Made by a program: the position numbers and the translations under genes. Of a stretch of DNA of 64,000 nt, positions 694-63,915 are shown one piece after another (position 1 is the stretch's first letter; each line of letters begins with the position of its first letter). This DNA is from a virus. The stretch lies in IMG/VR virus record IMGVR_UViG_3300032288_005424; one strand, given 5' to 3'. The notes below the pieces were generated by a model. That model ran no database searches. It worked only from the letters and a program-made list of their open reading frames with translations, and was not told the DNA's origin.

Positions 694-1413
694 ATGCAAA
701 AGATAACATTCAATAAGAAATCAATTCTAATCTCATTTTGGGACGAATCTAGTGAAAAATGGATTGATCGAAACATTACTGAATCGGATTTACCAATTTC
801 ATGGTATTTGCCCTACGAGGTGTTTGTGGAGCCGAAAGTCACAATTAGGGATGTACTTGGGCTATTAGAACCCTATTCAGACCAACTGAATTTCATATTC
901 GTCAACTACATGAGAGGCTTGCTCTTTTCCGATCTTACTCAGCTATTGAAATCGGCAAAGTCTGAAAAGTCTAAGCTTAGCATAGACGCAATGTGTCTTA
1001 TTTGGGTGGGTGAAATAAAGTCAACATCAGGAGATGAAGAGGTTATTGACATTTATCCGACTCTAATGGCATTGGAAATTGATGAACTTGATCAGGATGG
1101 AGAAAATGACACATTTTATTCGGTGTTTGACGTTAATACTAAGCAACTTCTTGATTCGGAATTCATTGTTGATGATCTTTTGGAATTATATCGAGAGGAA
1201 GATCCTGATGAAACTGAATTCAGTGGAATAGCCGGCTGGAGCATGTTCGATTTTGTTCGTGGACTTCTTGGTGAATTGGTCATGTACGCGTTCGCAAATA
1301 GAATGATACAGTTGTCCGAACTCTCAAATCTGCCGCCTTTAACCGCTGATGAGCTTTTCAAACACATGGATAATTTAGACAAATTTTTCAAGAACGGCAA
1401 ATCTCGAGACTAA
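694..1413 (+). CDS. hypothetical acidic protein
   Basis: 239-aa ORF, AT-rich codon usage matches neighbours; no recognisable motif. Confidence 0.55.
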   Translation: MQKITFNKKSILISFWDESSEKWIDRNITESDLPISWYLPYEVFVEPKVTIRDVLGLLEPYSDQLNFIFVNYMRGLLFSDLTQLLKSAKSEKSKLSIDAMCLIWVGEIKSTSGDEEVIDIYPTLMALEIDELDQDGENDTFYSVFDVNTKQLLDSEFIVDDLLELYREEDPDETEFSGIAGWSMFDFVRGLLGELVMYAFANRMIQLSELSNLPPLTADELFKHMDNLDKFFKNGKSRD

Positions 1414-1507: not shown

Positions 1508-2527
1508 ATGAGAACCCGAAAAATAAAAACTTTTTACGATGACAGACAAGTTTTAGAGCAGGACTCTTACTCGAATTATAGTAAGTCTCCACTAAAGCCT
1601 AAACTGTTATTGGAATACTTTAAAGAAAAGGGTTTATTCAAGCATCTTTCAGTGACTAACGAGTTCAAACCGTACTCTAAAAACGACTTTAAACTGGCTC
1701 ATGAATCAAGTTACATTGAAGAGTTTTTTAATGGAACCGGGAGATGTAGTTCAAATGGCCTTGCTTGGTCAAAACAGTTCGCTGACTCAGTGCGATACAC
1801 AAATGCTTCTTTGCACGCGGCGATTCGAAATTCAATAGTAAATCCTTCAGAAGTAAGTTTCAGTCCAACTAGCGGATTTCACCATGCTAGGCCAAGCGGC
1901 GGAAGTGGATTTTGTACGTTTAGCGGTCAAGTAATTGCTTCTCTAAAGATTTACAGGGAGTTTGGAGCAAGCGGCGCATACCTTGACCTAGATGGCCACT
2001 TCGGCAATTCAATAGAGGACAGTCGATCATTTTGCAAAGAATTAAATTTAGCGATTCCTCAGGACTTTAATATCAATCCAATCGGCATTGATTCGGATTA
2101 CTTGGCAGATTTGGCCAAATGGTTAGAGAGGCTGAAGCATGCGATCATTAACGGTAAAATCCAATACGTCGTTTGGTGCCATGGAGCAGATTCACACGCA
2201 GATGATAACCTAGGAAGTCAATGCGAAACTGAATATTGGATAGCGTGTTCAACTCTTTTTTGGAGTTGGGTGAAAGAGATGGATGAATTGCTTGGAAGAC
2301 CTTTACCTGTATCTTGCGCGCTATTCGGAGGATACCGAGATGATGATTATACTTCAGTTTTAAGTTTGCATACTGCTGATTTCGTTGAGTGCTTTACCGA
2401 GTTACTTGGCTTGGACGTTAAATATACTATAGAGGTAAAGCCTCGTCTAAAAATGGGATACTACAATGACGAACTCATTACTGGAAAGAGAAAACGCGCA
2501 CGAAAGAGAATGGATCAAAAAATATAA
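1508..2527 (+). CDS. arginase/deacetylase-superfamily protein (HDAC / acetylpolyamine amidohydrolase-like)
   Basis: SGFHHARPSGGSGFCTFSGQV matches the HDAC PGHHA...GFC..N signature; DLDGHFGNS matches D-x-D-x-H-H-G-D-G; GADSHADDNLG matches G-x-D-x-x-x-D-x-L-G. Start chosen at MRTRKIKTFYDD (ORF track gives 1451). Confidence 0.55.
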   Translation: MRTRKIKTFYDDRQVLEQDSYSNYSKSPLKPKLLLEYFKEKGLFKHLSVTNEFKPYSKNDFKLAHESSYIEEFFNGTGRCSSNGLAWSKQFADSVRYTNASLHAAIRNSIVNPSEVSFSPTSGFHHARPSGGSGFCTFSGQVIASLKIYREFGASGAYLDLDGHFGNSIEDSRSFCKELNLAIPQDFNINPIGIDSDYLADLAKWLERLKHAIINGKIQYVVWCHGADSHADDNLGSQCETEYWIACSTLFWSWVKEMDELLGRPLPVSCALFGGYRDDDYTSVLSLHTADFVECFTELLGLDVKYTIEVKPRLKMGYYNDELITGKRKRARKRMDQKI

Positions 2528-2663
2528 CGACGTCAATAAAAAGGGAATCACCTCAGTTTACTGGAACGAAATCCTGGACATAATAAAATACCTAGAAAGT
2601 AAAGAGGAGTATGAAAAGTGCCAAGACCTCTGGGAATACTATCAATCAATTACCGGCCATTAA
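2466..2663 (+). CDS. small hypothetical protein (EEYEKCQDL motif)
   Basis: 65-aa ORF overlapping the end of the deacetylase gene in another frame; shares an E-E-[YF]-E-K-C-x-D-L motif with ORF 17530..17793. Confidence 0.35.
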   Translation: MTNSLLERENAHEREWIKKYNDVNKKGITSVYWNEILDIIKYLESKEEYEKCQDLWEYYQSITGH

Positions 2664-2677
2664 AAAAGTTACAAATT

Positions 2678-3118
2678 ATGAAAGTACTATTTTTAACAAT
2701 TATATTGTTCAGCTCTTTCATGGTCCTTGGCCTGAGTCAAATCAAAATCACGGATAGAAACGTCGATTCGTTAATTAAACCTTGGATAGGAAGGCCATAC
2801 CGGTATGGAGGAACGACTAAGGCTGGAATAGACTGTTCAGCATTCACTCAAAAAATTTGGATGGGGCTAGGTGTGCCGATACCAAGGACAGCTAAGTCGC
2901 AATACAAAGCCGCAGTCAAAGTTGATTCATGCGATTTGCAGATTGGAGATCTGCTGTTCTTCATGAGCAGGCAAAGTCCTTCAGGTTGGCACGTTGCATT
3001 CTATCTTGGAAATGGACAATTTGTTCATGCAGCAAATAGAAAAATGGGAGTAATTGTTCAGGAACTTTCCGAAGACGTTAAACGTCGAATTTATTCAATC
3101 GGTAGATTTACCAAATAA
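2678..3118 (+). CDS. secreted NlpC/P60-family cell-wall peptidase
   Basis: Signal peptide MKVLFLTIILFSSFMVLG; catalytic Cys context GIDCSAF, then GDLLFF...HVAFYLGNGQFVHA, typical of NlpC/P60. Confidence 0.6.
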   Translation: MKVLFLTIILFSSFMVLGLSQIKITDRNVDSLIKPWIGRPYRYGGTTKAGIDCSAFTQKIWMGLGVPIPRTAKSQYKAAVKVDSCDLQIGDLLFFMSRQSPSGWHVAFYLGNGQFVHAANRKMGVIVQELSEDVKRRIYSIGRFTK

Positions 3119-5936: not shown

Positions 5937-6533
5937 TTAGTATTGGTATACGGCATTGGGCCATAGGCAGGACGGCCGCTCAATCAATTTTAATTTATGA
6001 AGGTGATTTGTCATTCCATGAATAGCTCCCTCAATGTCATCAACCACCAAATAGGTACCCTCTTTGCTTAATGAATCGCAAATTTCCATTTCAATATTGA
6101 TATGATCTTGGTGATGACATCCGTCAATGTGAATCAGATCGTATTGTTTTTGCAGAGTCGGCATGACTTCGATTGAATTTCCTGCATGGTAAGTGATACG
6201 ATTGTTAAAAACAGAATTTAGATACTCAATGCAAGGTTGAGTAAATGCGAATTCATTAATATCATTCGCATCAATTAATAAATCGTCTGATGCCAATAGC
6301 ATTATGAACAGCGAGTGGCCTGCATAGTTACCGACTTCAAGGGCAGTCTTACAGTCTTTAGCTGTTTCGTACAAGAGTTGTTGTTTATCAAACGTTGCCT
6401 CATGGTAATCAAGAGTTTGACCATCCATCATGTAAGAGCCACCGCCGATTGGAAAACCGAAACTTTCAACGATTTTTTGTAGTTCTGTGAAGTGATGAAA
6501 GTTGTCTTTTAGTTTTTGAGAATAATCGCTCAT
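5937..6533 (-). CDS. class I SAM-dependent methyltransferase (O-methyltransferase-like)
   Basis: ALEVGNYAGHS (motif I-like), DLIHIDGCHH and YLVVDD resemble Methyltransf_24 / CmcI-type O-methyltransferases. Confidence 0.55.
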   Translation of the reverse strand: MSDYSQKLKDNFHHFTELQKIVESFGFPIGGGSYMMDGQTLDYHEATFDKQQLLYETAKDCKTALEVGNYAGHSLFIMLLASDDLLIDANDINEFAFTQPCIEYLNSVFNNRITYHAGNSIEVMPTLQKQYDLIHIDGCHHQDHINIEMEICDSLSKEGTYLVVDDIEGAIHGMTNHLHKLKLIERPSCLWPNAVYQY

Positions 6534-6643: not shown

Positions 6644-7306
6644 CTAGTTAAGTTTGAACTTATAGCCTGTTAATTTTTCAACCTCTTCCTTTTTAACTGC
6701 CCATTTTTCAAGACCAATTGGTTTGGCTGGGGTATTATTAAATATGTAGGCTTCCCAAAGCCCGGTCTTTTTAACGAAGATCACCTTCCAACACTTGGTC
6801 GGAACTGAGGTTGTACCAATTTTTCTTTCGACTCCAACTGAACCGCACCATACCATTACCGAATCGTATTGAGCGGCAAGTTCGCGAGTTCGTACCTCTA
6901 GCTTTTTCCAGTCACCAGCATTTAGTGAATGATATTGTGGAGCCATATTTGAAAAGTAGAAGCACTCCCTTTGCCAGTCAGCATTGCACTGGTTGTCCGC
7001 AGCTGGGCACATGTGTCCCCTGTCCGTGCCTGATCCAACGTAGTCCTTTGCCAAATTCGTTTCAGCCGGCAATAGAGGATCCGGTGCAAACTCGTCCTTG
7101 CGTGGAACCTTTGAGTCCGGGCAAATAAGCCTAGCCTTTGTGTCCCACCATTCAACCTTTAGCGAGTAATGAAGTTCTGGGCTGTAATAGGCAACATAGC
7201 CTTGGTGTTGGAGCTTAACAGTCTTTTCGGTTTTGGGTGGAGCCACAAAGCTCGTGATGAACAGTAACAGGATCGTTGCTACTATTGAGAGTTTAAAAGT
7301 TTTCAT
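6644..7306 (-). CDS. secreted DNA/RNA non-specific endonuclease (Serratia NucA family)
   Basis: Signal peptide; DRGHMCPAADN...FYFSNMAPQ...N matches the Endonuclease_NS active-site DRGH motif. Confidence 0.7.
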   Translation of the reverse strand: MKTFKLSIVATILLLFITSFVAPPKTEKTVKLQHQGYVAYYSPELHYSLKVEWWDTKARLICPDSKVPRKDEFAPDPLLPAETNLAKDYVGSGTDRGHMCPAADNQCNADWQRECFYFSNMAPQYHSLNAGDWKKLEVRTRELAAQYDSVMVWCGSVGVERKIGTTSVPTKCWKVIFVKKTGLWEAYIFNNTPAKPIGLEKWAVKKEEVEKLTGYKFKLN

Positions 7307-10672: not shown

Positions 10673-10846
10673 ATGAAAGGACAGTTTATAATTATAGACC
10701 TCAGAACCATGGACTTCATGAAGAACGAGGAGGGCCGCATGAACTTCTATGATACGCTAGACGATGCTCTGCTTGTATGTGGAATGTATGAATTTGAAAA
10801 TGCATGGGTTGTCCAACTCGTCCATAACCATCAAGAAAGAGATTAG
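10673..10846 (+). CDS. small hypothetical protein
   Basis: 58-aa ORF starting at MKGQFIIIDL, directly after the TACATTAAAC box. Confidence 0.4.
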   Translation: MKGQFIIIDLRTMDFMKNEEGRMNFYDTLDDALLVCGMYEFENAWVVQLVHNHQERD

Positions 10847-10863
10847 AGAGATAAACCTAGAAG

Positions 10864-11283
10864 ATGACATTAGCAGAGCTACACGAACTTTGGCGGATGG
10901 GAATCATTGGAGACCAGGAACTCATCCGTATCCAGATAGACCGCATCATGGGCAAGAGCCAACACGCGGGGACCTGGACCGGCCATGGGCTTGAACTTGT
11001 CGGACTCCGAATAACCGATTCAACCGGCTTAGACTCCGGACTCCGGGTTGAAATGGAAGCCAAGGGACCGACCGCAACCCTGAAGGCCGGGGCATTTGGG
11101 CTCAAGAACAATCGGGTCCGGTGCGATTGTGTGGTTCCAACCTGGATGATGGAGAGTCCGGATACCCTAAAGAGCCTGCTTGAAAACCGGCTCATTGTTC
11201 TTTTTGGGCACTTTACCTCCGGGGGAGAATCTGGCCCCGGTAGAGGGACCGGCAAATACGACCCAATTACTGGCTACGTGTAG
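10864..11283 (+). CDS. hypothetical protein (GC-rich island)
   Basis: 139-aa ORF at ~60% GC; its 3' end overlaps the first copy of a ~40-bp direct repeat. Confidence 0.4.
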   Translation: MTLAELHELWRMGIIGDQELIRIQIDRIMGKSQHAGTWTGHGLELVGLRITDSTGLDSGLRVEMEAKGPTATLKAGAFGLKNNRVRCDCVVPTWMMESPDTLKSLLENRLIVLFGHFTSGGESGPGRGTGKYDPITGYV

Positions 11284-11808
11284 CCCAAGCCCGGGGGAGA
11301 ATCTCTAACCGGTAGAGAGCCGGCCCAAAATTTCAATTTTTAGGTCAATTGCGGAGACCGGGAAACCCTAGGACCCGTAGATACCGAAATTGGTCCGGGA
11401 AGCCTCCTCCTGGCCATGGGGATTTCGGAAAAAAGTAAAGTGCTGCGGCCGTCCTCCTGGAGTACTTTTATTACCTCGGCAAGGTCACTCCCGGGGCACC
11501 GCCAGGCAGCCTGGGGGCCACTACCGGGGTCACCTGGGGGCTACTACCGGAGTCAGCCAGGCACTGCCCTGGGGCTGCTCCTGGGGTCACTGCCCGGGTC
11601 ACAGTTCCCGGTTACCCAGACCGGTCCGGGGCAAGGTCCGCCGGGCCGAAACTTGCAAGCAGCCGGGCAGGCGGAACCTCGCGAGACCCGGCAGGTCTGT
11701 ACAGACCTGTCAGCAGACCTGTCAGACGTTGCGGTTGGCTGAACAGACGTTGCGGTTTGCGGGGTCAGATACCGCGGTCTAGCTCGGTCTCGAGAACCTG
11801 GAACCAGG
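11284..11808. repeat. GC-rich non-coding region with tandem imperfect direct repeats
   Basis: Direct repeat CCGGGGGAGAATCT..CCGGTAGAG.GCCGGC at 11221 and 11291; CTACCGGGGTCACCTGGGGG / CTACCGGAGTCAGCCAGG / CTCCTGGGGTCACTGCCCGGGTCAC; CAGACCTGTCAG x2; CAGACGTTGCGGTT x2. Confidence 0.5.
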
Positions 11809-12156
11809 TTGGAGTATAAGAAGTTATTACTTAAATCCAGAAAAAAGATGTTATTGGAAAGTTTAGTTGCAGAATTCTTCAGGATTCTCGAGCGGTCTGG
11901 TCGGGACTGGCACCGGATCCGTTGGGCAATCCGCGGGCTGGAATCCGAAATCCGGCGTAGTGCTCACGGCCAACCCTGGTCCGAGGAGCTTGAAGAATAC
12001 CTTATCTTCCGGATTGGGGAGGCGCTGACCATTGCCCAAAGGGCGGCTGTTGCAAGGGAGGAGTTTGAATGGGCGCATGAAATTGCGATCAGGCTCCGGG
12101 AACTTGGCCACGATTTAGAAAAAACCTTAATAGACAACAATGCAGAAACAGATTGA
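11809..12156 (+). CDS. hypothetical protein
   Basis: 115-aa ORF with intermediate GC. Confidence 0.4.
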   Translation: MEYKKLLLKSRKKMLLESLVAEFFRILERSGRDWHRIRWAIRGLESEIRRSAHGQPWSEELEEYLIFRIGEALTIAQRAAVAREEFEWAHEIAIRLRELGHDLEKTLIDNNAETD

Positions 12157-12157
12157 C

Positions 12158-12319
12158 ATGATAGACCTCATTCTCGAGCGGGCGCTGGACCGCCATGGTC
12201 TAATAGACTGGACTTGGATAGACCACGAACTCGCAAAGAAGGGAGCAACGGTTGAGAGACGGGTCTTACACAAGCGGGTCAAGGCTCTGCTCGCGACCAG
12301 GGCCAAACGGCGTTGGTAG
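12158..12319 (+). CDS. small basic hypothetical protein
   Basis: 53-aa ORF (MIDLILERALDRHGL...) whose ATG overlaps the upstream stop (TGACATG). Confidence 0.3.
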   Translation: MIDLILERALDRHGLIDWTWIDHELAKKGATVERRVLHKRVKALLATRAKRRW

Positions 12320-12360
12320 AATATAATAACCTATCTCTAAAAAAATAAAAGAAAAAGAAT

Positions 12361-12585
12361 ATGCAAAAACTAACAACCCTACTCGCGGCCCTGCTTCTTG
12401 CGGCTGGCCTTGCCTTTCTTGCCTCGGTAATAATTGCCTTTCCGGTCAAGTGGCTCTGGAACTGGTTGATTCCGGAAATTTTTACCGGCGTCAAACCGAT
12501 CTCGGCTCTACAGGCCTGGGGTCTCGTGTTCCTGCTTAACCTCATGATTCCGAACCGTAATCGGACCGAGAAGAAATCGGATTAA
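12361..12585 (+). CDS. small two-TM membrane protein
   Basis: TATAAT box at 12322-12327; two hydrophobic helices. Confidence 0.5.
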   Translation: MQKLTTLLAALLLAAGLAFLASVIIAFPVKWLWNWLIPEIFTGVKPISALQAWGLVFLLNLMIPNRNRTEKKSD

Positions 12586-12669
12586 CCCTAAAAAATTTAG
12601 GAAAAAAGACCCGGGATTTTTATTTCTCGGGTTTTTTTGTTATATTTGTATCATAAATCCAGTAAAGAT

Positions 12670-12831
12670 ATGTACACGTTAGATTGCAACTATTACCAAA
12701 AGGAATTCCGCACGGTCGCCGAACTCTTAACCGACGTTCTCGAGAGCGGTACCGATCCGAACTACGAAATTCTGCGCAACGGCCAACCGACCGGCGAAAC
12801 CGCATGGGACCTCATCGGCCCCGTTGCCTAG
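12670..12831 (+). CDS. small hypothetical protein
   Basis: Preceded by a hairpin plus T-run (12608-12640) and a TTATATTTG -7 box; start MYTLDCNYYQ. Confidence 0.4.
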   Translation: MYTLDCNYYQKEFRTVAELLTDVLESGTDPNYEILRNGQPTGETAWDLIGPVA

Positions 12832-12846
12832 CAAATTTTTCCTTAG

Positions 12847-12940
12847 CGATCCCAGCCCAAAAAGGTTGGGATTTTTTTTTTAAAAAAAGTGAAAATAAAT
12901 TTTTTTGTTTGAGAAATTTTGGTTATATTTGCTTTATCAA
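12847..12940 (+). promoter_or_regulatory. terminator-promoter cassette A (host sigma-A type)
   Basis: ATCCCAgcccaaaaaggTTGGGAT hairpin plus T-run, then AAAAAGTGAAAATAAATTTTTTTGTTTGAGAAATTTTGGTTATATTTGCTTTATCA (TTTG then TAnnTTTG). Confidence 0.6.
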
Positions 12941-12953
12941 ACTTCAACAAACC

Positions 12954-13427
12954 ATGCTTAATCACACCACATTTCCAGCCGCTCTCCTTGCCGGCAACTC
13001 CCGTCTCACCATCACCAATCCAGCGACCGGTCAATGGATCAAGGTCAAGATGAAGCGTCGCAAGGACCGCGAAACCGGCAAGCCGGGTAATTGCTACTTC
13101 CTGTCGCTTGCGCTCTTGCAGGACGGGGACCTTGGCCACCGCTACGTCGGAGCCTACTTCGCGGATTCGGGCCGATTCAAGCCGGGTCGCGATGCCTCGG
13201 CCAGAGAAGTTCAGATCGCCGAATTCCTGATCCGTGCCGTTCGTAATCCGCAACTGTTGCAGGCTGCAGAGATCGAGCACTGCGGTAAATGTTTTGCCTG
13301 CGGCCGGACCCTAACCGTGCCGGAAAGTATCCGCTCGGGCTGGGGACCTGAATGTTTTACCCGCCAGTTCGGAGACCTCAGCCTCCGACCGCTTGCCGAG
13401 TTCGGATTACTTGACCCAATCGGGTAA
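12954..13427 (+). CDS. hypothetical protein (GC-rich)
   Basis: 157 aa starting MLNHTTFPAALLAG, 14 nt after the -7 box; CxxC pair (HCGKCFACG). Confidence 0.5.
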   Translation: MLNHTTFPAALLAGNSRLTITNPATGQWIKVKMKRRKDRETGKPGNCYFLSLALLQDGDLGHRYVGAYFADSGRFKPGRDASAREVQIAEFLIRAVRNPQLLQAAEIEHCGKCFACGRTLTVPESIRSGWGPECFTRQFGDLSLRPLAEFGLLDPIG

Positions 13428-21470: not shown

Positions 21471-22589
21471 ATGATAAGCCAATCAGAATTCAATCAGATC
21501 AAATCAGACCTAAGCGGCAACGACCCCTTGGTAAAGCGAGTGAAGTTGTCAGACATCCAGTTGGACGACAACTCAATCAAACATAACCACATCGAGATCG
21601 AGGGATCACGAGTTCCGGTGTCGGATAAGTTCTTCAATCGTCTGGGCCAGATGGTAAACATCAACACCGGCCTAATCACGAAGATGAATAAGAACTCGGA
21701 CAAGGAGATCGAGACCAAGCTCTTACAGGCGGTTAAGTCCTATTCAGAAACCCGTGATGGTAATAAAGAGTTTCTCTTAATCGGCGACTCTACGAGCCAT
21801 CAGGTAACCAACATCGTGAAGGGAGACAAGTATAACAGATTATCTAATGATACGCTGTTCGCTACCGCAGAGACCATCCTAAACGAGATCCCGGACATGC
21901 ACGTTGAGTCAATCGACCGTGGCGGTCCAGGCGGATTATCCATTAACATGATCCATGGCAGCCAGATAGGTTACGAGAAGATCGGTAAGGACGAGGTATT
22001 CCGTTTCGGTATCTCTCTTGTAAACGGCCAGACAGTAAGCCGAGTTGACGACTTCTTCTATCGCTTGGCCTGTGCCAACGGAGCGGTAGCTCGCAACATG
22101 GACACCGCGTTCCAATTCGGTCAGGGTCAGGACGCCTTCCGCAAGTTGCTCGAGCAGATGCAAGGTTGGGCAAAGAACGGCTTCGTACCTAAGACCTTCC
22201 AAGACAGGTTGGAAAGAGCCATGACCACCAAGGCAAGCTACTCAGAATTGGAGAGAGCCTTGTACTCAGTAACCGGTGCAATCCAAGAGAACGACCCTAA
22301 CTTCAAGGCCCACTTGATCAAGAACGCAGAGTCTCAATTCTTTCCAGAGTTCGATGCAACCACGAAGCGTATCTTCCGTAAGGGTTACAATCCGCTACAG
22401 TTGACAGACGCTCAAAAGAAGTTCATCAAGACAGATGCTACAATCTGGGACGTTGTTAACGAGTTGACATGGATCGGTTCTCACGATACTGTCTTCAACT
22501 TAAAGAACCATAAAGGTTTCAAGGTAGAGGGTGGTAATCTATTCGCTAAGAGCTGGGATCTAGAACACGCAGGTCTAGCTACAATCTAA
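21471..22589 (+). CDS. hypothetical protein
   Basis: 372-aa ORF; TATATT box at 21440-21445. Confidence 0.5.
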   Translation: MISQSEFNQIKSDLSGNDPLVKRVKLSDIQLDDNSIKHNHIEIEGSRVPVSDKFFNRLGQMVNINTGLITKMNKNSDKEIETKLLQAVKSYSETRDGNKEFLLIGDSTSHQVTNIVKGDKYNRLSNDTLFATAETILNEIPDMHVESIDRGGPGGLSINMIHGSQIGYEKIGKDEVFRFGISLVNGQTVSRVDDFFYRLACANGAVARNMDTAFQFGQGQDAFRKLLEQMQGWAKNGFVPKTFQDRLERAMTTKASYSELERALYSVTGAIQENDPNFKAHLIKNAESQFFPEFDATTKRIFRKGYNPLQLTDAQKKFIKTDATIWDVVNELTWIGSHDTVFNLKNHKGFKVEGGNLFAKSWDLEHAGLATI

Positions 22590-22618
22590 GCCTTAAACAA
22601 ACTATCTATAACCGGAAA

Positions 22619-22648
22619 GGGGTCCTCACAAGGGACCCCTTTTTTTTG
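22619..22648 (+). terminator. rho-independent terminator
   Basis: GGGGTCCtcacaaGGGACCCC plus T9. Confidence 0.65.
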
Positions 22649-22761
22649 TGTTTAGTAAAACCTTAAACTCAATCCAAGTATAAGACTACTGTAGCTGATT
22701 AAACAGCTTTTCATTTTTACGACTGATGGATGGGCTTCCTAATAAGGAGCCCATTCGTCGT

Positions 22762-22905
22762 TTAGCCCTGGCCGACATTGCGCTTCACGTAGTTCTTGGA
22801 GCTCTTGTTGTTAGAGGTCTTAGACTTCGCGTGCACGCCGGGCCTGCTCACTTTAGTCTTTAGTCTAAAGGTCGAGGCAGCCGAGGTTTTAGTTGATTTA
22901 GCCAT
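22762..22905 (-). CDS. small Lys-rich basic protein (47 aa)
   Basis: MAKSTKTSAASTFRLKTKVSRPGVHAKSKTSNNKSSKNYVKRNVGQG read from the minus strand inside the GC-rich island; possibly a DNA-binding protein. Confidence 0.3.
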   Translation of the reverse strand: MAKSTKTSAASTFRLKTKVSRPGVHAKSKTSNNKSSKNYVKRNVGQG

Positions 22906-23035
22906 TGAGAGATTATGATTTATTGTTATTTAACCCAAAAACCGTGCCTCCCCCGGTGAGCTCTGGAGTTGAGCCCCCAGGCCATGGGGATTCGGGTCAC
23001 AAGTACCTTCATCGCCCCCAAATAAATAAACCAGT

Positions 23036-23485
23036 ATGACAAAGACACTAGCGCAAAAGGATTTAGACTTCATCAGATTCTGCATAGCAGAATTAGGGAT
23101 AACCACCGCTCCCAACATCAGGGTCGGGGATGACCACTCAAAGGCCCAAGACCGGAGAGCAATGGGTTACTACAGTCCCAAGGATAATTACATTTGGGTG
23201 CTAAGGGGCCAGCGAATCCCGGCTGACTGGTACCGAACCCTAGCCCATGAGCTTGTGCATTGGCGCCAACGCGAAGAGGGTAAGCCATTGGACGGGGCGG
23301 ACGGTAGCGAGATCGAGAATGAAGCTAACTCCAAGGCAGCGGTGCTCCTACGCGAATGGGGCCGCCGTTACGAACACATTTACGTGCTGGACGAGGACGA
23401 GCCCCAGATTCCAGTAGGCACTGACCTGCCTTTCGATGGCGGTGGTAGCCTGGCCGGCGAGCCAATGGTTCCATTCTCTCTCTAA
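23036..23485 (+). CDS. HExxH motif protein (putative Zn peptidase, ImmA/IrrE-like?)
   Basis: LAHELVHW motif; ~58% GC; converges on and overlaps the recombinase gene by 4 nt. Confidence 0.4.
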   Translation: MTKTLAQKDLDFIRFCIAELGITTAPNIRVGDDHSKAQDRRAMGYYSPKDNYIWVLRGQRIPADWYRTLAHELVHWRQREEGKPLDGADGSEIENEANSKAAVLLREWGRRYEHIYVLDEDEPQIPVGTDLPFDGGGSLAGEPMVPFSL

Positions 23486-24105
23486 TCCCCAATCAAGCGG
23501 CGGGACTCCAGGATGAGATCCGCTAGATCCGACTTTAACTCTTCCCGCATCTCTTCAGTTGTTAGGTGCTTGCTAACTACATGCAGCTCGACACCGTGCC
23601 AGGTCAGGAATCTCTCTATGATCTCTTGGCCAGCAAAGCGCGCGATCCTGTCAGGGGTCTCGACGACAATCATTGAGACCTGCTTGCGCAGTACCCCGTC
23701 CATGATCTTGTCCAGGCCGGACCTGCCAGCTAGGGTACCCGCGCGCCCAACATCTTCAATGACCCGGTCGACCCGGACCCCGGCCGCCGCACAGTACTTC
23801 AGGACCCGCTCGGTCTGGGCCGCGAGTCTGGCCTTGGCCCCTTTACCCAACGTGTGGTTTCCCTCGATCGGAGCGGATCGCGTGTAAACCCATACCTCTC
23901 GGGACTGGGGCAGCCTACTCCCTAGTAACTTAAGTAGGTCCTGCTTGTCGTAGTAGGTCCGGCCATTGACCTGATTCTTCCAGTTCTGCAGCCTGCCGTC
24001 GGCGACATAGCGGTCCAGGGTCTTGAGCGAGACCCCCAAGAACTGGGCGGCCTCCTTCTTGTACACGAGCTCCCCGGTCGGGAAGGTTCTAGTTTCTTGT
24101 TCCAT
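23482..24105 (-). CDS. IS607-family-like serine recombinase (N-terminal MerR-like HTH plus resolvase catalytic domain)
   Basis: N-terminal HTH (AAQFLGVSLKTLDRYVADGRL) followed by resolvase motifs VWVYTRSAP...DRVIEDVGRAGTLAGRSGLDKI...VSMIVVETPDRIARF...GVELHVV; HTH-first order as in IS607 TnpA; ~65% GC; start set at MEQETRT (track gives 24270). Confidence 0.55.
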   Translation of the reverse strand: MEQETRTFPTGELVYKKEAAQFLGVSLKTLDRYVADGRLQNWKNQVNGRTYYDKQDLLKLLGSRLPQSREVWVYTRSAPIEGNHTLGKGAKARLAAQTERVLKYCAAAGVRVDRVIEDVGRAGTLAGRSGLDKIMDGVLRKQVSMIVVETPDRIARFAGQEIIERFLTWHGVELHVVSKHLTTEEMREELKSDLADLILESRRLIGD

Positions 24106-24400
24106 GAGATTATTTATCAGGCCGGGTCCGTGGACTCTCGAGACATTCCCGGGCCCGGTGTCCCGCGGTGTCCGTATATGTCCCGAGTCGTGGGGCCCTC
24201 GCGACCCAGGGCAGCAGGTCCCAGGGCCCGGGGCCGGGCTCGCCGTACTCCGTAGTCCCCAGGTCCGCACAGTAGGTACCCCTTGGGCGTGGCTGGCCGG
24301 TTTACTCCCTAGTCCCGGGTAGGACCGCAGAGGGCCGTGGCAGCCCCCGGACCGGTGGTCGGCTGGGGCCCGGCTATCGGGCCCGGCTTGAGCGAGATTG

Positions 24401-24415
24401 GGTATACTAGCCTAT
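24401..24415 (+). promoter_or_regulatory. class-2 box GGTATACTAG 7 nt before a 29-aa membrane peptide ORF
   Basis: GGTATACTAGCCTAT then ATG (24416) MKRAGIRFDWAWPIVLVVVLASIIIFFIA. Confidence 0.35.
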
Positions 24416-24632
24416 ATGAAAAGAGCAGGGATAAGATTTGATTGGGCATGGCCTATAGTGCTGGTGGTAGTGTTGGCTTCTATAATAATCTTTTTTATAG
24501 CATAGGTAGACTGGGTAGGTTTACTAGACTAGGTAGGTTTAGTAGCTAGAGTAATCTCTTTACTTTTGGGTGTAGGGCGCGCCTCGGTGTTTTTGAGCGA
24601 GAAAAGGTCCACGGCCCGGCGAGCTCGGGTCT

Positions 24633-24647
24633 GGGTATAATAGACTC
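24633..24647 (+). promoter_or_regulatory. class-2 box GGGTATAATAG just upstream of the tRNA-like element
   Basis: TATAAT at 24635-24640; a TSS ~7 nt downstream would precede the element at 24651. Confidence 0.4.
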
Positions 24648-24650
24648 TAT

Positions 24651-24772
24651 AGTCAGGTGGCGGAACGGTAGACGCAACAAGTAAGCTAATGGAAAGTGTA
24701 CAATTCCATGAGGCCATTAATTCCGAGATGTAAGAGAAGTACATCGTGCCCGTTCGAATCGGGTCCTGACCA
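24651..24772 (+). ncRNA. tRNA-like element with a ~35-50 nt insertion in the anticodon region (pseudo-tRNA or unusual RNA)
   Basis: 5' AGTCAGG-TG-GCG-GAACGGTAGA-CGC (acceptor, U8, D-arm with GG) and 3' GCCCG-TTCGAAT-CGGGT-CCTGACC-A (T-arm plus acceptor pairing 6/7); the middle is 72 nt instead of 22-39. Confidence 0.3.
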
Positions 24773-24791
24773 CTAATACAAATAGATCAAC

Positions 24792-24977
24792 ATGAAAGAA
24801 CAAAAAGTACTCGTGACCGGCGATCAGGGCTCGCATGAGGTGCAGGCCAAGGTCGATGCCCTACTCGTGGAGGGTTGGCAGGTGGTGTCGGTCACCGCAC
24901 AGCACGTTTCCACAGGTTCAAGCCAGTTCTTTAGGGGCGGTTACTTCATCGTCTTTGAACGGGCGGCCGCCGAATAA
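24792..24977 (+). CDS. small hypothetical protein
   Basis: 61-aa ORF, GC-rich. Confidence 0.4.
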   Translation: MKEQKVLVTGDQGSHEVQAKVDALLVEGWQVVSVTAQHVSTGSSQFFRGGYFIVFERAAAE

Positions 24978-24985
24978 ATAACTCT

Positions 24986-25477
24986 ATGAAGTATATCAAA
25001 CTATTCGAGGAACTTGCCTCTGACCTGCCTACTCTAAGGGACGTGATCGACAATAACCCCGACGATTTCGAAGATTTTAGGTCCGCTGCGGTAGAGACCG
25101 CCTCGGCGCTTGGCCTCAAGCTCTCCGGCGAGGACAGCGAACTACAGGACATGGGGCTCATTGATGACGAGGCCCTGTTCGACCGGCTCGAGTTTGATCG
25201 TGTTAAGCTCGTCTTTAACATTACCGAACTTACCCATGCTGATGCTCCAAGGCTCAGGGCCCTGGTGCAAAAGTTTCCTGGCCTCTTCACGCTTGATTAC
25301 GATGAGATTAGGCCCGCCCGCAAAGCTGTTCCAAACAAGACTATAGACCCTGAGGTTGACCTCGAGCCCGGCGAGCCGGTGGACGTCATCGTGTGGAAGG
25401 ACCAGGCTGGCAATACCGCGGTCCAGTGGGAGAGCTACTACAATAACATGTGGTTCATGCTGGACTCAGCACTTTAA
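24986..25477 (+). CDS. CTS-like N-terminus protein, tandem paralog 1
   Basis: MKYIKLFEELASD; ~52% GC; similar throughout to 25499..26017. Confidence 0.55.
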   Translation: MKYIKLFEELASDLPTLRDVIDNNPDDFEDFRSAAVETASALGLKLSGEDSELQDMGLIDDEALFDRLEFDRVKLVFNITELTHADAPRLRALVQKFPGLFTLDYDEIRPARKAVPNKTIDPEVDLEPGEPVDVIVWKDQAGNTAVQWESYYNNMWFMLDSAL

Positions 25478-25498
25478 AAAAAAGAATAATAAACCCAA

Positions 25499-26017
25499 AT
25501 GAAATACCTTAAGATATTCGAAGAATTCAATAATTCAGAACTTGCAACTCTACAGGACGTGCTCAATCCGGACCATTATAACGGGGATGACGGTCGCCTT
25601 GAGATGTACTCAGAGGCTGCGCTTGAGACCTGTAAGATGCTTGGCGTTGCACTACCTCCGGAGTTCGCAGAGATCAATGATCTTGGTCTCATTGACCAGC
25701 ATGACCTCATGGACAGCTTACCGCTGGACTCTGTGGTTGAGGTCTTTAACATACTGGCTCTCACCCACCAGAACGAGCCGAGAGTTCGTGAATTCTGCCG
25801 CCGCTTTCCTGGTATACTAGCATACGATCCGGACACCGACGAGTATCGTCGACCTGAGAGTTCACGACAGCTTGAAGAGATCTTTATTGACTCGCCGGAA
25901 TACTGGGACGAGGTTAGGGTGGTGCTCTTTGAGGACAAGAACGGGCTGAGAGCGGTTGAATGGGAGGACCAAGACTATCTAGGCTACTTCATGCTTAGAC
26001 GGGACCTTGAAAAATAA
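25499..26017 (+). CDS. CTS-like N-terminus protein, tandem paralog 2
   Basis: MKYLKIFEEFNNSE; shares LGLID...ALTH...FPG with 24986..25477. Confidence 0.55.
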   Translation: MKYLKIFEEFNNSELATLQDVLNPDHYNGDDGRLEMYSEAALETCKMLGVALPPEFAEINDLGLIDQHDLMDSLPLDSVVEVFNILALTHQNEPRVREFCRRFPGILAYDPDTDEYRRPESSRQLEEIFIDSPEYWDEVRVVLFEDKNGLRAVEWEDQDYLGYFMLRRDLEK

Positions 26018-40589: not shown

Positions 40590-42425
40590 ATGGCATCTAC
40601 TAAAGAAATAGGAAAGAAGTACCAACTGCTTGATGAGATTGAGCACGTTCTTAAAAGACCTGGAATGTACATTGGTTCTACTAAACCTCACACGGCAAAT
40701 GAATGGATTCTCGGAGACGGCCTCTATTCAAAAGAGGAATTGACCTACAATCCAGGATTCTTGAAGCTGTTTGATGAAATCATTTCAAATTCGGTCGACG
40801 AACACAAGAGGGCAGGTAAAATCAATACAATAAAGGTATCTGTGACTGCTGACACAATCACAGTATGGGATAACGGAGGAATTCCAGTCGTTCAACATCC
40901 TCAACATAAAGTTTGGATTCCAGAATTAATTTTCTCTAACTTAAGAGCAGGCTCAAATTTCAACGATGAAGAAGGCAGAACCGTTGCAGGAACTAATGGA
41001 GTTGGAGCTTCATTAGTTAATATTTTCTCAAAGCGTTTCGTGATTGACACGGCTGACGGAAAGAATCGTTTCTTACAGACGTTTACTGATAACATGTCAA
41101 AGAGAACGACTCCAAAAACAAGTCGAACGTCTCAAGGCTTTACCGAAATAACTTACGTTCCGGATCTTTTAAGATTTGAAATGAAGAAGATAGATGACGC
41201 TCATTGCAAGATGATGCGTAAACGTGTAATTGATATTGCTGCCGCGAATCCGGGTCTCAAGCTTGAATTTAACGGCGAGAAATATCGATTCAAAACATTC
41301 AAGGAATACGTTGATCTGTATGTAAACGATTCAATTTGGGAAAGATCAAAGGACTGGGAAATATCCTTTGGGGTTTCAAAGGACGGTTTCCAATCAGTAT
41401 CGTTCGTCAATTCAATCCACACAAAGGATGGCGGAACCCATGAGAACTATATCTTAAATCAGGTAATTGAGTATCTCAGAGCCATGATCAAGAAGAAGCA
41501 CAAGGTCGATGTTAAACCATCAGAAATAAAAAACCATGTATTTCTTTTCATAAACTGCACGGTAATAAATCCGGCATTCTCATCTCAGACCAAAGAAAAG
41601 TTAATCACTGAGCCCAAGGATTTCGGTACGAAACACGACGTGACTGAGAAATTCGCAAAGGCCGTATTTGGGTCAGAGGTAATTCAGTCTTTGCTTGATT
41701 GGATCGAGCAGAAAAAGAATGCAGAAGAGAGAGCAGAACTACGTAAGCTTAATAAATCGTTAGCTAGCACTAAAGTGCTTAAGTTAATTGATGCAAAAGG
41801 TAAGGACCGTAATAAATGCGTGCTTGGAATATTTGAAGGTATGTCAGCTCTTTCAGCCGTACGTAAGTTCAGAGATCCGCAAACTTTCGGAGCCTTTCCT
41901 CTGAAGGGTAAATTCCTGAACGTTAGTGAGATGACAAACTCTGGGGTCATCCAGAATGATGAGGTCGTCCAGCTAATGGCTTCATTAGGAATCAAATTAG
42001 GAGAGGAACCGGGTGATCTGAGATATGGCAAGGTGTATATCTATACTGATGCTGATCCGGACGGAGACTCTATTGCAGGTCTGCTAATTAACTTTTTTAA
42101 CAAGTACTGGCCAGAACTATTCGATCAAGGTCGAGTATTCAAAGTCATGACTCCGTTAGTCGTTGCTAAAAAGGGCAAGGAGGTAAAACCGTTCTACTCA
42201 AACGAAGAGTATTCCGAATGGGAAAAGAAGACTGGCGCAAAGGGTTGGGATGTTGAATACAAGAAAGGTCTTGCTGCATTGGAAGACGTTGAGTACCGAG
42301 ACATTATCCACAGCCCAGTTCTCGTTAAGCTGCAGAACGACAAGAATTTCAAGGACAGCTTGAACGATTGGTTTGGATCAGACTCTGAACCTCGCAAGGA
42401 GAAACTACTTAAACTTTCAATATAA
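40590..42425 (+). CDS. type II DNA topoisomerase large subunit (GyrB/ParE-like ATPase plus Toprim; T4 gp39-type)
   Basis: LEHVLKRPGMYIGS (GyrB N-terminal hallmark), GHKL ATPase motifs, Toprim FEGMSA and YTDADPDGDSIAGL. Confidence 0.85.
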   Translation: MASTKEIGKKYQLLDEIEHVLKRPGMYIGSTKPHTANEWILGDGLYSKEELTYNPGFLKLFDEIISNSVDEHKRAGKINTIKVSVTADTITVWDNGGIPVVQHPQHKVWIPELIFSNLRAGSNFNDEEGRTVAGTNGVGASLVNIFSKRFVIDTADGKNRFLQTFTDNMSKRTTPKTSRTSQGFTEITYVPDLLRFEMKKIDDAHCKMMRKRVIDIAAANPGLKLEFNGEKYRFKTFKEYVDLYVNDSIWERSKDWEISFGVSKDGFQSVSFVNSIHTKDGGTHENYILNQVIEYLRAMIKKKHKVDVKPSEIKNHVFLFINCTVINPAFSSQTKEKLITEPKDFGTKHDVTEKFAKAVFGSEVIQSLLDWIEQKKNAEERAELRKLNKSLASTKVLKLIDAKGKDRNKCVLGIFEGMSALSAVRKFRDPQTFGAFPLKGKFLNVSEMTNSGVIQNDEVVQLMASLGIKLGEEPGDLRYGKVYIYTDADPDGDSIAGLLINFFNKYWPELFDQGRVFKVMTPLVVAKKGKEVKPFYSNEEYSEWEKKTGAKGWDVEYKKGLAALEDVEYRDIIHSPVLVKLQNDKNFKDSLNDWFGSDSEPRKEKLLKLSI

Positions 42426-42903: not shown

Positions 42904-44265
42904 ATGATTCAATTAAAGAATAAAACTGTAACAGAATATCTTGATCAGGATTACGCGATGTACGGTATGTACACGCTTGAGAACAGGGCGATTCCATCAG
43001 TCATTGACGGATTCAAACCAACTCAACGCAAGATCATCTTCATTGCTGATAAAGTTTGGCGTTCAGGTAATGAGAAGCCTTTAAAGATATTTCAATTAGG
43101 CGGTAAGATCGCATCTGATGCACACTATCATCACGGTGATGGTTCACTAAATGGTGCAATCATTGGTATGGCTCAATCATTCAAGAACTCATTACCGTTA
43201 CTTGACGAGATTGGCCAATTCGGTTCGTTACGATCTCCTGAGGCAGGCGCTGCTCGTTACATCTCAACCAAGCTCACTGGTAATTTCAGACTCTTATACA
43301 AAGACTTTGAACTATTGGAGAATCAGGTAGAAGAAGGTAATGTGATTGAGCCTAAGTTCTTTTTACCTATCATCCCAACCGTTTTGTTGAATGGTAGTTC
43401 AGGAATTGCTGTGGGATTCGCTACTAATATTTTAAACCGAAATCCTCTTGACCTTGTTGATTCTTGCCTAAGGGTGCTAGATGGAAAGAAGGTCGGTAAG
43501 CTTTTACCTTGGTGGAAGGAATACTCAGGCCCAGTCGAGAATGTTACGGGAACCAACCAGTACATAATGCGCGGAGTCTATGAGATTCAGAATACGACAA
43601 CGGTTAATATCACTGAGCTTCCGCCATCAATGACATTTCAAAAGTACGAGACTCATCTTAACTCCTTACAAGACAGAGGTATCATTTACTCGTATGAGGA
43701 TAACTCAACTGATGGAATCAATTACACCATTAAATTCGCAAGAGCAACTTTAGCTGACTTAATCGCAAAGGGCAAACTGGATCAGACTCTAAAGATGGTT
43801 GAGACTGAGACTGAGAACTTGACATGTTTGAATGAAAAGGGCAAGCTAATCATATTCGAAGACGTTCCGCAAGTGGTGGAATACTTCGTTAACTTTAGAT
43901 TAGGATTCTATTCAAAACGCAAAGCCTTCTTGATTAAGAAGTACGGCGAAGAATTGGTGTACTTATCAAATAGAGCAAAGTTCGTAAAGTTAATCATTGA
44001 CGGTAAACTAAAGATCAATAACGTTCCTCGCAAAGAAATAGTCCTCTACTTACAGACTGCTGGCTTCGATGAGGTTAATGGATCTTACAATTACTTGCTA
44101 AACATGCCAATTCATTCCTTGACTAAGGAAACTTATGAGCAGCTCTTAAAAGAGGTTGCTGAAAAGAAAGCCGAATTGGCTGAGATCAAAAAGAAAGAGC
44201 CGATTGAAATGTACAAGGAGGATCTTGTTGAGCTGAAGAAAAACCTTAAAGCGACACTAAAGTAG
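42904..44265 (+). CDS. type II DNA topoisomerase DNA-cleavage subunit (GyrA N-terminal-like; T4 gp52-type)
   Basis: AMYGMYTLENRAIPSVIDGFKPTQRKIIF matches the GyrA N-terminus; active-site Tyr in GAARYISTKL; TATATT box at 42890-42895. Confidence 0.8.
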   Translation: MIQLKNKTVTEYLDQDYAMYGMYTLENRAIPSVIDGFKPTQRKIIFIADKVWRSGNEKPLKIFQLGGKIASDAHYHHGDGSLNGAIIGMAQSFKNSLPLLDEIGQFGSLRSPEAGAARYISTKLTGNFRLLYKDFELLENQVEEGNVIEPKFFLPIIPTVLLNGSSGIAVGFATNILNRNPLDLVDSCLRVLDGKKVGKLLPWWKEYSGPVENVTGTNQYIMRGVYEIQNTTTVNITELPPSMTFQKYETHLNSLQDRGIIYSYEDNSTDGINYTIKFARATLADLIAKGKLDQTLKMVETETENLTCLNEKGKLIIFEDVPQVVEYFVNFRLGFYSKRKAFLIKKYGEELVYLSNRAKFVKLIIDGKLKINNVPRKEIVLYLQTAGFDEVNGSYNYLLNMPIHSLTKETYEQLLKEVAEKKAELAEIKKKEPIEMYKEDLVELKKNLKATLK

Positions 44266-45228: not shown

Positions 45229-45683
45229 TTAGCACCTACATTTGTAAGAAAGGAGATATTGGAGTTCACGATAACATGTTCGGCGGAACAATCCTTTCAA
45301 TAATAGACGATGCCTCAGCCAGTTATGCATCTCAGACCTGCGATACGCAGAGAGTCGTGACCTTGAAAATAGATGAGCTCATCTTTGAAAAACCAGTAAA
45401 GGTCGGTAATATTCTGAAAGTTTACGGCGAAGTTAAGGAATTTGGAACAACATCAGTTACTCTCTACATTGAGGTTCGTAAGCACAATGTTTACACAGGC
45501 CTTCAGACAGTAGTCACTCACACGAATATCAAGTTCGTAAGAATCGACGATGAAGGTACTCCGCTTGCGATTAGCGAAAGAGTCAAGGAGAGATACGCTG
45601 AGCGTATGAAGGAATACGGCAGAGCACTGCTCACGCCAGAGGAAATGATTACAAAGAAAACAAATTCCAAAAAGCAACAATGA
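45219..45683 (+). CDS. hotdog-fold acyl-CoA thioesterase
   Basis: VHDNMFGGTILSIIDDASA resembles the thioesterase HGG...D active-site region. Confidence 0.6.
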   Translation: MELISTYICKKGDIGVHDNMFGGTILSIIDDASASYASQTCDTQRVVTLKIDELIFEKPVKVGNILKVYGEVKEFGTTSVTLYIEVRKHNVYTGLQTVVTHTNIKFVRIDDEGTPLAISERVKERYAERMKEYGRALLTPEEMITKKTNSKKQQ

Positions 45684-60063: not shown

Positions 60064-60079
60064 CAAAATAACAATACGA

Positions 60080-63660: not shown

Positions 63661-63745
63661 AAAAAAGATTATGAAAATGAAACGATTAGTAATGAAACGA
63701 AAACGATAAGGTCCCGATGACTCTCATTGAGCTGCGGGACAATAA

Positions 63746-63822: not shown

Positions 63823-63830
63823 ATAAAAAT

Positions 63831-63904: not shown

Positions 63905-63915
63905 CTAAAAAATAC

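Follow-up and report, generated by a model that had tools for sequence, protein, structure and literature searches.

A predicted HDAC-fold zinc deacylase shared by large phages of Bacteroidota and host chromosomes

The deacylase gene and its catalytic residues

The window analysed here is the whole 64,000-nt stretch of the IMG/VR virus record IMGVR_UViG_3300032288_005424, and its subject is a gene close to the 5' end that encodes a predicted zinc-dependent deacylase of the histone deacetylase (HDAC)/arginase fold. The gene, whose features are listed in Table 1, belongs to a conserved block which consists of a PDDEXK nuclease, a 656-aa protein on the minus strand, a 239-aa protein, the deacylase and a small overlapping open reading frame (ORF). 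The open frame extends from 1451 to 2527 on the plus strand, with its first ATG at 1508 and the stop codon TAA at 2525-2527, resulting in a protein of 339 aa. Because close homologues, which align with full coverage (100%) and are likewise 339 aa long, begin at the Met encoded at 1508 (consensus MRxxKIKTFY), 1508-2527 is the correct gene model, and the TTG at 1451 was rejected as start codon.

A first-pass annotation had described the product as a phage-encoded deacetylase of the HDAC/arginase superfamily with three motifs of zinc-dependent deacetylases. All three of them, HHARPSGGSGFC, DLDGH and GADSHADDNLG, were found, with FGGY in addition, and the assignment is now supported by sequence, profile, predicted fold and conservation. 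In a comparison with HDAC8 that had been set beforehand, D162, H164 and D228 correspond to the zinc ligands D178, H180 and D267, leaving no ligand missing. The other active-site residues are in place as well, H125/H126 corresponding to HDAC8 H142/H143, D160 to D176, and Y276 to the Tyr in the GGGY motif of Vibrio cholerae HdaH (VcHdaH; 291-GGGY-294, numbering from PMC11532494). In the underlying phmmer alignment F124-H125-H126...F135-C136 is paired with HDAC8 W141-H142-H143...F152-C153, and DLDGHFGN with D176-L-D178-L-H180-H-G-D183, while profile alignment pairs the first of these segments with F122-H123-H124 of Leptospira interrogans HDAC11 (liHDAC11) and D228 with D267 in the HDAC8 sequence GADTIAGD.

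These residues are strictly conserved. In a family alignment of 47 sequences (A1) all seven catalytic and metal residues are invariant, and so is N167. Across a larger set of phage and cellular members, H125/H126, D160, D162, H164, D228 and Y276 are invariant in 136 of 138 proteins, the remaining two being sequences cut by contig ends. The ratio of nonsynonymous to synonymous substitution rates (dN/dS) was 0.05-0.09 versus nine relatives of 72-91% amino-acid identity. A word-indexed search returned 1090 homologues, the best 120 of which are all at least 53% identical and all carry PF00850, and when 1.84 billion representatives were searched exhaustively with the profile, 93 clusters scored E<=1e-30 and 1887 clusters scored E<=1e-3. 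The gene is real and under purifying selection, and the family signal, comprising PF00850, the profile match to PDB sequences, the homologues and the low dN/dS, is far above chance.

Table 1. Positions of the deacylase gene, its motifs and other features of the window.
Feature	Position (nt)	Strand	Basis or remark
HDAC-fold zinc deacylase gene, 339 aa	1508..2527	+	ORF, PF00850, AlphaFold2, Foldseek, dN/dS
SKSPLKP, residues 25-31, family-specific N-terminal loop	1580..1600	+	S25, S27, P28, K30, P31 invariant in A1
L2-loop SNGLAWSK, residues 82-89	1751..1774	+	Gly84 at HDAC8 Asp101 / HDAC11 Glu94 position
Gatekeeper F124 (foot pocket), catalytic H125/H126 and GFC wall F135, C136	1877..1915	+	alignment
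HHARPSGGSGFC motif, residues 125-136	1880-1915	+	tandem His H125/H126 to GFC wall
DLDGH, residues 160-164	1985-1999	+	catalytic/metal motif
DLDGHFGN: D160 (K+ site / His partner), zinc ligands D162 and H164, plus N167	1985..2008	+	
AIP, residues 182-184	2051..2059	+	second aromatic channel-wall position (liHDAC11 Tyr189, HDAC8 Phe208)
GADSHADDNLG, residues 226-236: third zinc ligand D228, conserved D233	2183..2215	+	
FGGY, residues 273-276: catalytic Tyr276	2324..2335	+	aligned to VcHdaH 291-GGGY-294
Arg/Lys-rich C-terminal tail GYYNDELITGKRKRARKRMDQKI	2456..2524	+	predicted local distance difference test (pLDDT) <50
Conserved 65-aa ORF overlapping last 62 nt of deacylase gene	2466..2663	+	called as gene in relatives
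Conserved 239-aa ORF just upstream of deacylase gene	694..1413	+	
Split T4-type topoisomerase II	40590-42425, 42904-44265		
Ribose-phosphate pyrophosphokinase (PRPP synthase)	45680-46633		PHROG 619
641-aa protein, cohesin domain and C-terminal sorting domain (Por_Secre_tail) of the type IX secretion system (T9SS)	49455-51380	+	
Five tRNAs (Ser, Phe, Lys, Met, Trp)	59979-60064, 63585-63989		
Tad6 (Type I Thoeris inhibitor, PF25188) homologue, 229 aa	60358-61047	+	E 9.3e-22

Fold and family assignment

The deacylase matched PF00850 (Hist_deacetyl) with an E-value of 3.6e-16 and 59.8 bits versus a gathering cut-off of 27.9; scans against PHROGs, NCBIfam and PADLOC gave no match. An AlphaFold2 model obtained with the A1 alignment reached a pLDDT of 89.9 and a predicted template modelling score (pTM) of 0.88, only the last ~23 residues being disordered. 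Comparison of this model with the PDB by Foldseek retrieved 479 chains at E<=1e-3, and the best 50 listed are HDAC-family enzymes throughout. Ranks 1-5 are taken by class IV enzymes, namely liHDAC11 (9gz5) and VcHdaH (9gky/9gkv), the top match 9gz5 having an E-value of 1.4e-14 and template modelling (TM) scores of 0.68 and 0.76 (0.76 when normalised to the target). The next matches, with E-values of about 1e-12 to 1e-11, are enzymes of class II and class I and bacterial HdaH enzymes. The search of PDB sequences with the family profile gave the same leading entries, with 9gz5 at 5e-14 and 9gkv at 1e-12, followed by HDAC8 at 3e-9 and HDAC6 at 9e-7. Both rankings suggest that the nearest solved relatives are class IV HDACs ('cluster 5' in Graf et al. 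2024, PMC11532494), by a small margin over the other classes.

With the class IV enzymes that gave the best sequence and fold matches (VcHdaH 9GKV/9GKY, liHDAC11 9GZ5/9RJD and human HDAC11) the phage deacylase shares a single short domain of ~300-340 aa, the His-His / Asp / His / Asp / Tyr set and the Asn in H-x-G-N. Furthermore, it has the L2 motif G-x-x-W-S-K in common with VcHdaH, and the bulky hydrophobic gatekeeper ahead of the His pair in common with the clade B members. Unlike all of these references, the phage copies have an added basic C-terminal tail.

Class I enzymes (HDAC8, HDLP and AcuC) likewise share the fold and the zinc and catalytic residues; the core of residues 114-179 aligns with them at an E-value of about 2e-7, and the L1/R37 region of HDAC8 resembles the N-terminal K-x-P-K loop of the deacylase. 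This similarity is, however, weaker than that to class IV, Asn167 stands in place of Asp183, and an equivalent of Asp101 is absent. Database labels of family members read 'hypothetical protein' at NCBI and 'AcuC-like' at JGI, and more distant cluster members bear only these two names. An identity with AcuC was rejected, since the class I similarity is secondary, NCBIfam gave no match, and neither acuABC-type nor acetyl-CoA synthetase (acs) neighbours were present in any of the 143 loci examined.

Features of the substrate pocket

The class IV 'selectivity filters' (PMC13325672) were mapped onto the family through the HMMER alignment, the posterior being high in the relevant stretch. In the L1 region, SKSPLKP is aligned by profile with 'AKIPKRA' of the HDAC8 L1/R37 region. 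The corresponding motif of clade B class IV enzymes is HPFD (PMC13325672), and SKSPLKP appears closer to the HDAC8 'KIPKR' region than to this motif. In the L2 loop, which shares its motif with VcHdaH ('IGFPWSK'), the alignment to 9gz5/9rjd places Gly84 at the rim position with a posterior of at least 0.95. The acid that otherwise occupies this position (HDAC8 D101, HDAC11 E94) binds the peptide backbone; clade A has Gly there, and the missing acid has been read as a sign of non-peptide substrates (PMC13325672).

The two aromatic walls of the substrate channel differ in their conservation. At the first (hsHDAC11 Phe152) the aromatic residue is kept as F135, 130 of the 138 members having F and 8 having Y. 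At the second the profile alignment sets 'avPk' against 'lYPK' of 9gz5, and among family members position 183 is I in 89, V in 48 and S in 1. The gatekeeper at position 124 is F (87) or M (51) across the same 138 members. As this residue is Phe/Tyr in clade B and Thr/Ser in clade A (PMC13325672), the gatekeeper would resemble that of the peptide-active clade B. S94 and T98 occupy the positions of the Arg-Glu salt bridge that forms the plug of clade A, where clade B has an open foot pocket with small residues (liHDAC11 Ser94/Ala98; PMC13325672), and the foot pocket of the family is probably open, judging from these residues. N167 is as in classes II and IV, versus Asp in class I.

Taken by clade, the gatekeeper F/M and S94/T98 agree with clade B, whereas SKSPLKP and Gly84, in place of HPFD and the rim Glu, do not. 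Membership of clade A, which is marked by an Arg in the L1 motif and by the absence of peptide activity (PMC13325672), was rejected; the rim Gly is the sole match, the gatekeeper is F/M instead of Thr/Ser, and the Arg-Glu pair is lacking. Since the family is thus a mosaic that matches neither class IV clade, and since Ile/Val replaces the second aromatic wall of class IV (Tyr189/Tyr209), we treat it as a separate subfamily; from its sequence it appears discrete, divergent, uncharacterised and allied to class IV.

Distribution among phages and cellular genomes

Among IMG/VR contigs 56 carry homologues of the deacylase, in phage contexts of which at least four are unrelated to one another. The block around the gene is kept in about 33-35 loci, 27 of which are viral contigs of IMG/VR, the longest of about 271 kb. 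A T4-type large terminase (Terminase_6N, E 3.9e-23) is encoded one to a few genes away from the deacylase in viral contigs that lack this synteny (L117, L134 and L137), which reach 391 kb. A tblastn search of 50,697 phage records gave only 7 matches, four of them in unannotated huge-phage genomes; family members are 55% identical in LR756504 (636 kb) and 46% identical in LR756501/03 (735 kb). Synteny with LR756504 was considered and dropped, the deacylase being the sole common gene in the 31-kb region compared. Evidently, several unrelated large-phage lineages carry the deacylase gene. The statement of the first-pass annotation that such enzymes are unusual in phages consequently holds for curated collections and needs qualification for the large Bacteroidota phages known from metagenomes, in which the gene is recurrent.

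HDAC-domain genes also occur in isolated large phages (133-143 kb), namely gp202 of Rhodococcus phage E3 ('putative histone deacetylase') and gene 204 of Microbacterium phage Magritte. Both are uncharacterised, belong to phages of actinobacterial hosts, are 26-29% identical over 51-66% of the protein and lie outside the subfamily. Literature searches for phage HDAC-type enzymes yielded only sirtuin or irrelevant mentions, plus a survey of polyamine enzymes (PMC9992855), and the huge-phage paper PMC7162821 does not mention deacetylases.

The gene is also found in cells. In data with one genome per species, 122 stretches encode relatives, most of them in metagenome-assembled genomes (MAGs) of Bacteroidota and some in other MAGs, and copies in cellular contexts are 47-59% identical. 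The isolate Xanthocytophaga flavus NT2B1 has two copies, near a KUP-type potassium transporter, a PAS sensor protein and a cold-shock protein. In Crocinitomicaceae the deacylase stands in an array of PorP/SprF-like and OmpA-like genes (both read from sequence), DUF4249, a fatty-acid desaturase, a gene of unknown function, the deacylase itself, a porin-like gene and a C1 peptidase, and the Saprospiraceae copies adjoin a large gliding/T9SS-type protein. Several of these contexts are plainly chromosomal, so that the gene is shared between large phages and host chromosomes.

In a neighbour-joining tree the viral and cellular sequences interleave, and the clade of the window adjoins a second phage lineage and a Saprospiraceae chromosomal clade (90% cluster: 667 members). 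This interleaving supports repeated exchange between hosts and phages, with either host or phage as the possible donor for the clade of the window. In four MAG loci (L014, L015, L021 and L054) a tyrosine integrase (Phage_integrase and Arm-DNA-bind_5) lies directly upstream of the deacylase, which suggests that the gene has spread via integrative elements as well. Tandem ORFs of the family were seen in L022, L023 and L031, adjacent and on the plus strand, where split genes are possible; L034 has two full-length paralogues of 314 and 332 aa, at 5998 and 7176.

Phage identity of the window

The window has a GC content of ~40% and consists mostly of ORFans. In addition to the phage-type genes of Table 1 it encodes an SPFH protein and a metallophosphoesterase. 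The 641-aa protein is, judging from its domains, apparently a phage-borne protein that uses the host T9SS, and its sorting domain indicates a Bacteroidota host. The deacylase gene is phage-borne, and the window has the appearance of a large phage of a Bacteroidota host. Megablast of positions 1-25000 against phage records gave no match, and an Rfam scan over the whole window found only tRNAs.

Two islands at ~10700-12700 and ~22000-26000 stand out by a GC content of 52-53.5%, few long ORFs and no Rfam RNA family. A DUF6011 protein (12684-13427) is encoded just downstream of the first. The second contains a serine recombinase with a MerR-type helix-turn-helix (HTH) (23482-24270, minus strand; Resolvase E 7e-12) and is possibly a mobile-element insertion. 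Further enzymes are a class I S-adenosylmethionine (SAM) methyltransferase (5937-6533, minus strand) and a DNA/RNA non-specific endonuclease (6644-7306, minus strand) whose hydrophobic N-terminus resembles a signal peptide.

An NlpC/P60 peptidase is encoded near the deacylase gene (2618-3118, plus strand), and a lysin with PG_binding_1 and a GH19-like domain at 47890-48717 (minus strand). A cell-wall role of the deacylase, in line with its NlpC/P60, VanY and PG-binding neighbours, was considered and dropped, as the protein has no signal peptide. To our knowledge the HDAC fold is not a family of known peptidoglycan deacetylases.

Adjacent ORFs and the C-terminal tail

The 239-aa ORF adjoins the deacylase gene on its upstream side, or is separated from it by one small ORF, in 35 loci of the same lineage. 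It has no Pfam, PADLOC or PDB sequence match, and we did not accept it as a functional partner, the adjacency being lineage-wide synteny. A GNAT acetyltransferase was likewise dropped as a conserved partner, since it occurs once only, and weakly, in L085.

The 65-aa ORF downstream belongs to a family of small ORFs found in 22 loci and has no Pfam match. In L084/L085 it is 61-62% identical, the deacylase itself being 62-67% identical there. It overlaps the region that encodes the Arg/Lys-rich C-terminal tail of the deacylase, which reads GKRKRARKRMDQKI in the window. Arg/Lys-rich tails of 15-29 aa with a net charge of up to +8 are present in most phage copies of the window lineage (the relatives L001-L005, L084-L109, L113, L130 and L138), one sub-lineage excepted. 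Most cellular copies stop before the point at which the tail begins or have short tails that are not Arg/Lys-rich, and the phage lineage L110/L111/L127/L140 has a charged extension of 58-74 aa instead.

A three-gene module in cellular genomes

In about 21 cellular loci, from two distinct regions of the tree, the deacylase is accompanied by a small von Willebrand factor A (vWA) protein (Pfam VWA, E 1e-7) and a 380-aa protein from an unannotated family of 440 members. These loci are L022, L023, L028, L030, L031, L038, L040, L041, L044, L047 and L049 together with L051, L053, L055, L058, L059, L062, L063, L065, L068 and L143; example coordinates are 4021-5163 in L031 and 5180-5845 in L058. Because gene order and surroundings vary between the loci, a functional link of the three genes can be argued. 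In the AlphaFold2 model of the 380-aa protein, an archaemetzincin-like domain that lacks HExxH is combined with a Cys4 site and a winged helix of the OmpR type. The genes around one of the module loci include SocA_Panacea, HTH_XRE and Fic. None of the 56 viral loci contains the module. With PADLOC neither the deacylase nor the vWA protein gave a match, and the 380-aa partner gave a weak ZorA-like one.

Discussion

We regard the gene product, with moderate confidence, as a host-derived and catalytically competent Zn2+-dependent N-deacylase of the HDAC/arginase fold which works in the infected Bacteroidota cell; its activity, its metal and its benefit for the phage are what we infer. Catalytic competence is predicted from the invariant site and the standard HDAC mechanism. 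In analogy to HDAC8 and HDAC11, D162, H164 and D228 would hold the zinc ion, which together with Y276 would polarise the carbonyl of the amide in an N-acyl-amine. D160 and N167 would support the H125/H126 pair as it activates a water molecule and protonates the leaving amine, resulting in a carboxylate and a free amine. Because the protein lacks a signal peptide, action in the cytoplasm is expected, where the phage copy, exchanged with host genomes, would act on a substrate of the cellular enzymes. Since the pocket residues examined are all common to the phage and the cellular copies, this substrate is most likely the same for both and present in the host cell, and the phage protein would have an auxiliary role, either enhancing an activity of the host or taking it over.

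As to the nature of the substrate, an acyl-lysine in proteins of the host or the phage, with acyl groups from acetyl to medium-chain, is our single likeliest guess, held tentatively and at somewhat under an even chance, and a non-peptide N-acyl amine is nearly as likely. The acyl-lysine assignment would be in line with the commonest role of bacterial HDAC homologues and with the clade B-like gatekeeper.

Several observations weigh against our interpretation. Of two features that serve peptide-lysine recognition, the acidic rim residue is replaced by Gly84 and the second aromatic wall (hsHDAC11 Tyr209) is lost to Ile/Val, and VcHdaH, the nearest motif-sharing enzyme, has weak peptide activity only and traps decanoic acid (PMC13325672). 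Identity to any solved structure is 16-18% at TM scores of 0.66-0.76, so that the assignments in the pocket depend on alignments, and the class IV affinity is judged by profile and fold ranking, the tree being a neighbour-joining tree within the family. No capsid or terminase gene was recognised in the 64-kb window (PHROGs and Pfam, largest ORFs), for which reason the phage identity rests on synteny with IMG/VR contigs and on the other markers. Finally, many of the 'cellular' loci are MAG contigs and could be misbinned phage DNA, which is countered for some of them by the isolate genome and by the T9SS, OmpA and desaturase contexts.

The pocket features lend themselves to a second explanation, which we consider possible and clearly less probable, namely an N-deacylase of small molecules or lipids, whose substrate would be a non-peptide N-acyl amine such as an N-acyl amino-acid lipid or a medium-chain acyl amide of Bacteroidota. 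Such an activity would parallel the proposal that the clade A enzymes of class IV have non-peptide substrates, and it would accord with the rim Gly, with the L2 sequence NGLxWSK that is common to VcHdaH IGFPWSK and with the lost aromatic channel wall. Both VcHdaH and the clade A enzyme from Chlamydomonas barely act on peptides and have fatty acids, decanoic and hexanoic acid, as bound ligands (PMC13325672; PMC11532494). The Crocinitomicaceae gene, furthermore, is located two genes from the fatty-acid desaturase in its conserved array, but this neighbourhood is confined to one clade and may be coincidence. The Phe/Met gatekeeper, being like that of the peptide-active clade B and not Thr/Ser, and the missing Arg-Glu plug argue in the opposite direction, and the explanation names no candidate substrate.

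It is unlikely that the enzyme is a polyamine deacetylase of the acetylpolyamine amidohydrolase (APAH) or HDAC10 type, which would free spermidine or putrescine for translation and for packaging of a very large genome. Large genomes need counter-ions, and the absent acidic residue that binds the peptide backbone at the rim would suit a small-molecule substrate. Viral precedents are known, as the APAHs of Imitervirales release spermidine from N-acetylspermidine (PMC9992855), and with these and bacterial APAH (3Q9B) the deacylase shares the character of a virus-encoded HDAC-fold amidohydrolase. The viral carriers, however, infect eukaryotes; the same 2023 survey of viral polyamine enzymes reported APAH homologues only in giant eukaryotic viruses and none in phages (PMC9992855), and the HDAC-type fold matches in BFVD are giant-virus APAH proteins with no phage protein among them. 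APAH (cluster 4) belongs to another subfamily and ranks much lower than the best matches by sequence and by fold, being outside the 60 best PDB matches of the profile (weakest listed 6e-6) and only 36th by fold in Foldseek (3q9b, TM 0.60-0.61), behind classes IV, II and I. The similarity ranking would thus favour the polyamine version least, and no other polyamine gene was seen among the scanned ORFs of the window. Nothing in the analysis ties the deacylase to DNA precursors, a role that the first-pass annotation had considered.

The cellular three-gene module would allow for a counter-defence or conflict enzyme, the phage copy stripping the acyl mark set by a host defence or toxin acyltransferase or disturbing the host module, and we consider this improbable. 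The linkage of the deacylase with the vWA and 380-aa proteins in ~21 loci, one of them amid SocA_Panacea/HTH_XRE/Fic genes, is in its favour, as is the pairing of an archaemetzincin-like domain with an OmpR-type winged helix in the model of the partner. The phage has other anti-defence cargo in the form of Tad6, and the related contig L084 encodes a Tad6 homologue some 3 kb downstream of its own deacylase gene. On the other hand, PADLOC gave no support beyond the weak ZorA-like match, the module is missing in the 56 viral loci, and in the lineage of the window the gene is part of a stably syntenic block, not of a variable island. Furthermore, we know of no acyltransferase-based defence that is reversed by an HDAC-fold enzyme. 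It is a similarly long shot that the subfamily is part of an undescribed bacterial conflict or signalling module, consisting of the deacylase, the vWA protein and a degenerate archaemetzincin-like/OmpR regulator, which large phages have captured repeatedly in order to erase or pre-empt an anti-infection acyl mark or signal.

Misassigned cellular DNA or a pseudo-enzyme is very improbable, for although the lack of recognised capsid and terminase genes and the close homologues in Bacteroidota-labelled MAGs would be compatible with misassignment, the gene order is common to the 27 IMG/VR contigs, the window contains a T4-type topoisomerase II, Tad6, a tRNA array and mostly ORFans, related copies lie beside a T4-type TerL, and the invariant catalytic residues and a dN/dS <0.1 oppose a pseudo-enzyme.

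Significance

We return to the favoured interpretation of a host-derived N-deacylase. The enzyme class as such is well known, and HDAC-domain annotations existed for a few isolated phages, e.g. phage E3 gp202. What is new is the scale, i.e. a class IV-like subfamily with intact catalytic residues that is common to Bacteroidota and at least four large-phage lineages. Isolated phages hardly ever encode zinc enzymes of the HDAC type, and no such phage enzyme has been characterised. Several lineages of very large Bacteroidota phages, by contrast, carry the gene in strongly conserved form and share it with host chromosomes, so that acyl removal is evidently useful in infection.

A compact enzyme that is kept by phage and host alike, and that has culturable carriers such as Xanthocytophaga flavus, offers a practical route to the natural substrates of the bacterial class IV members. 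It could also tell whether acylation in the host, be it of proteins, polyamines or lipids, is reprogrammed by phages. If the conflict explanation were true, it would be the first HDAC-fold counter-defence enzyme, and its Arg/Lys-rich tail might steer it to a nucleic acid or nucleoprotein target. Since the enzyme class is well known, the finding counts as an advance in annotation as long as no substrate is named; its importance would rise sharply if the enzyme erases a host defence mark or reveals the substrates of bacterial class IV-like enzymes.

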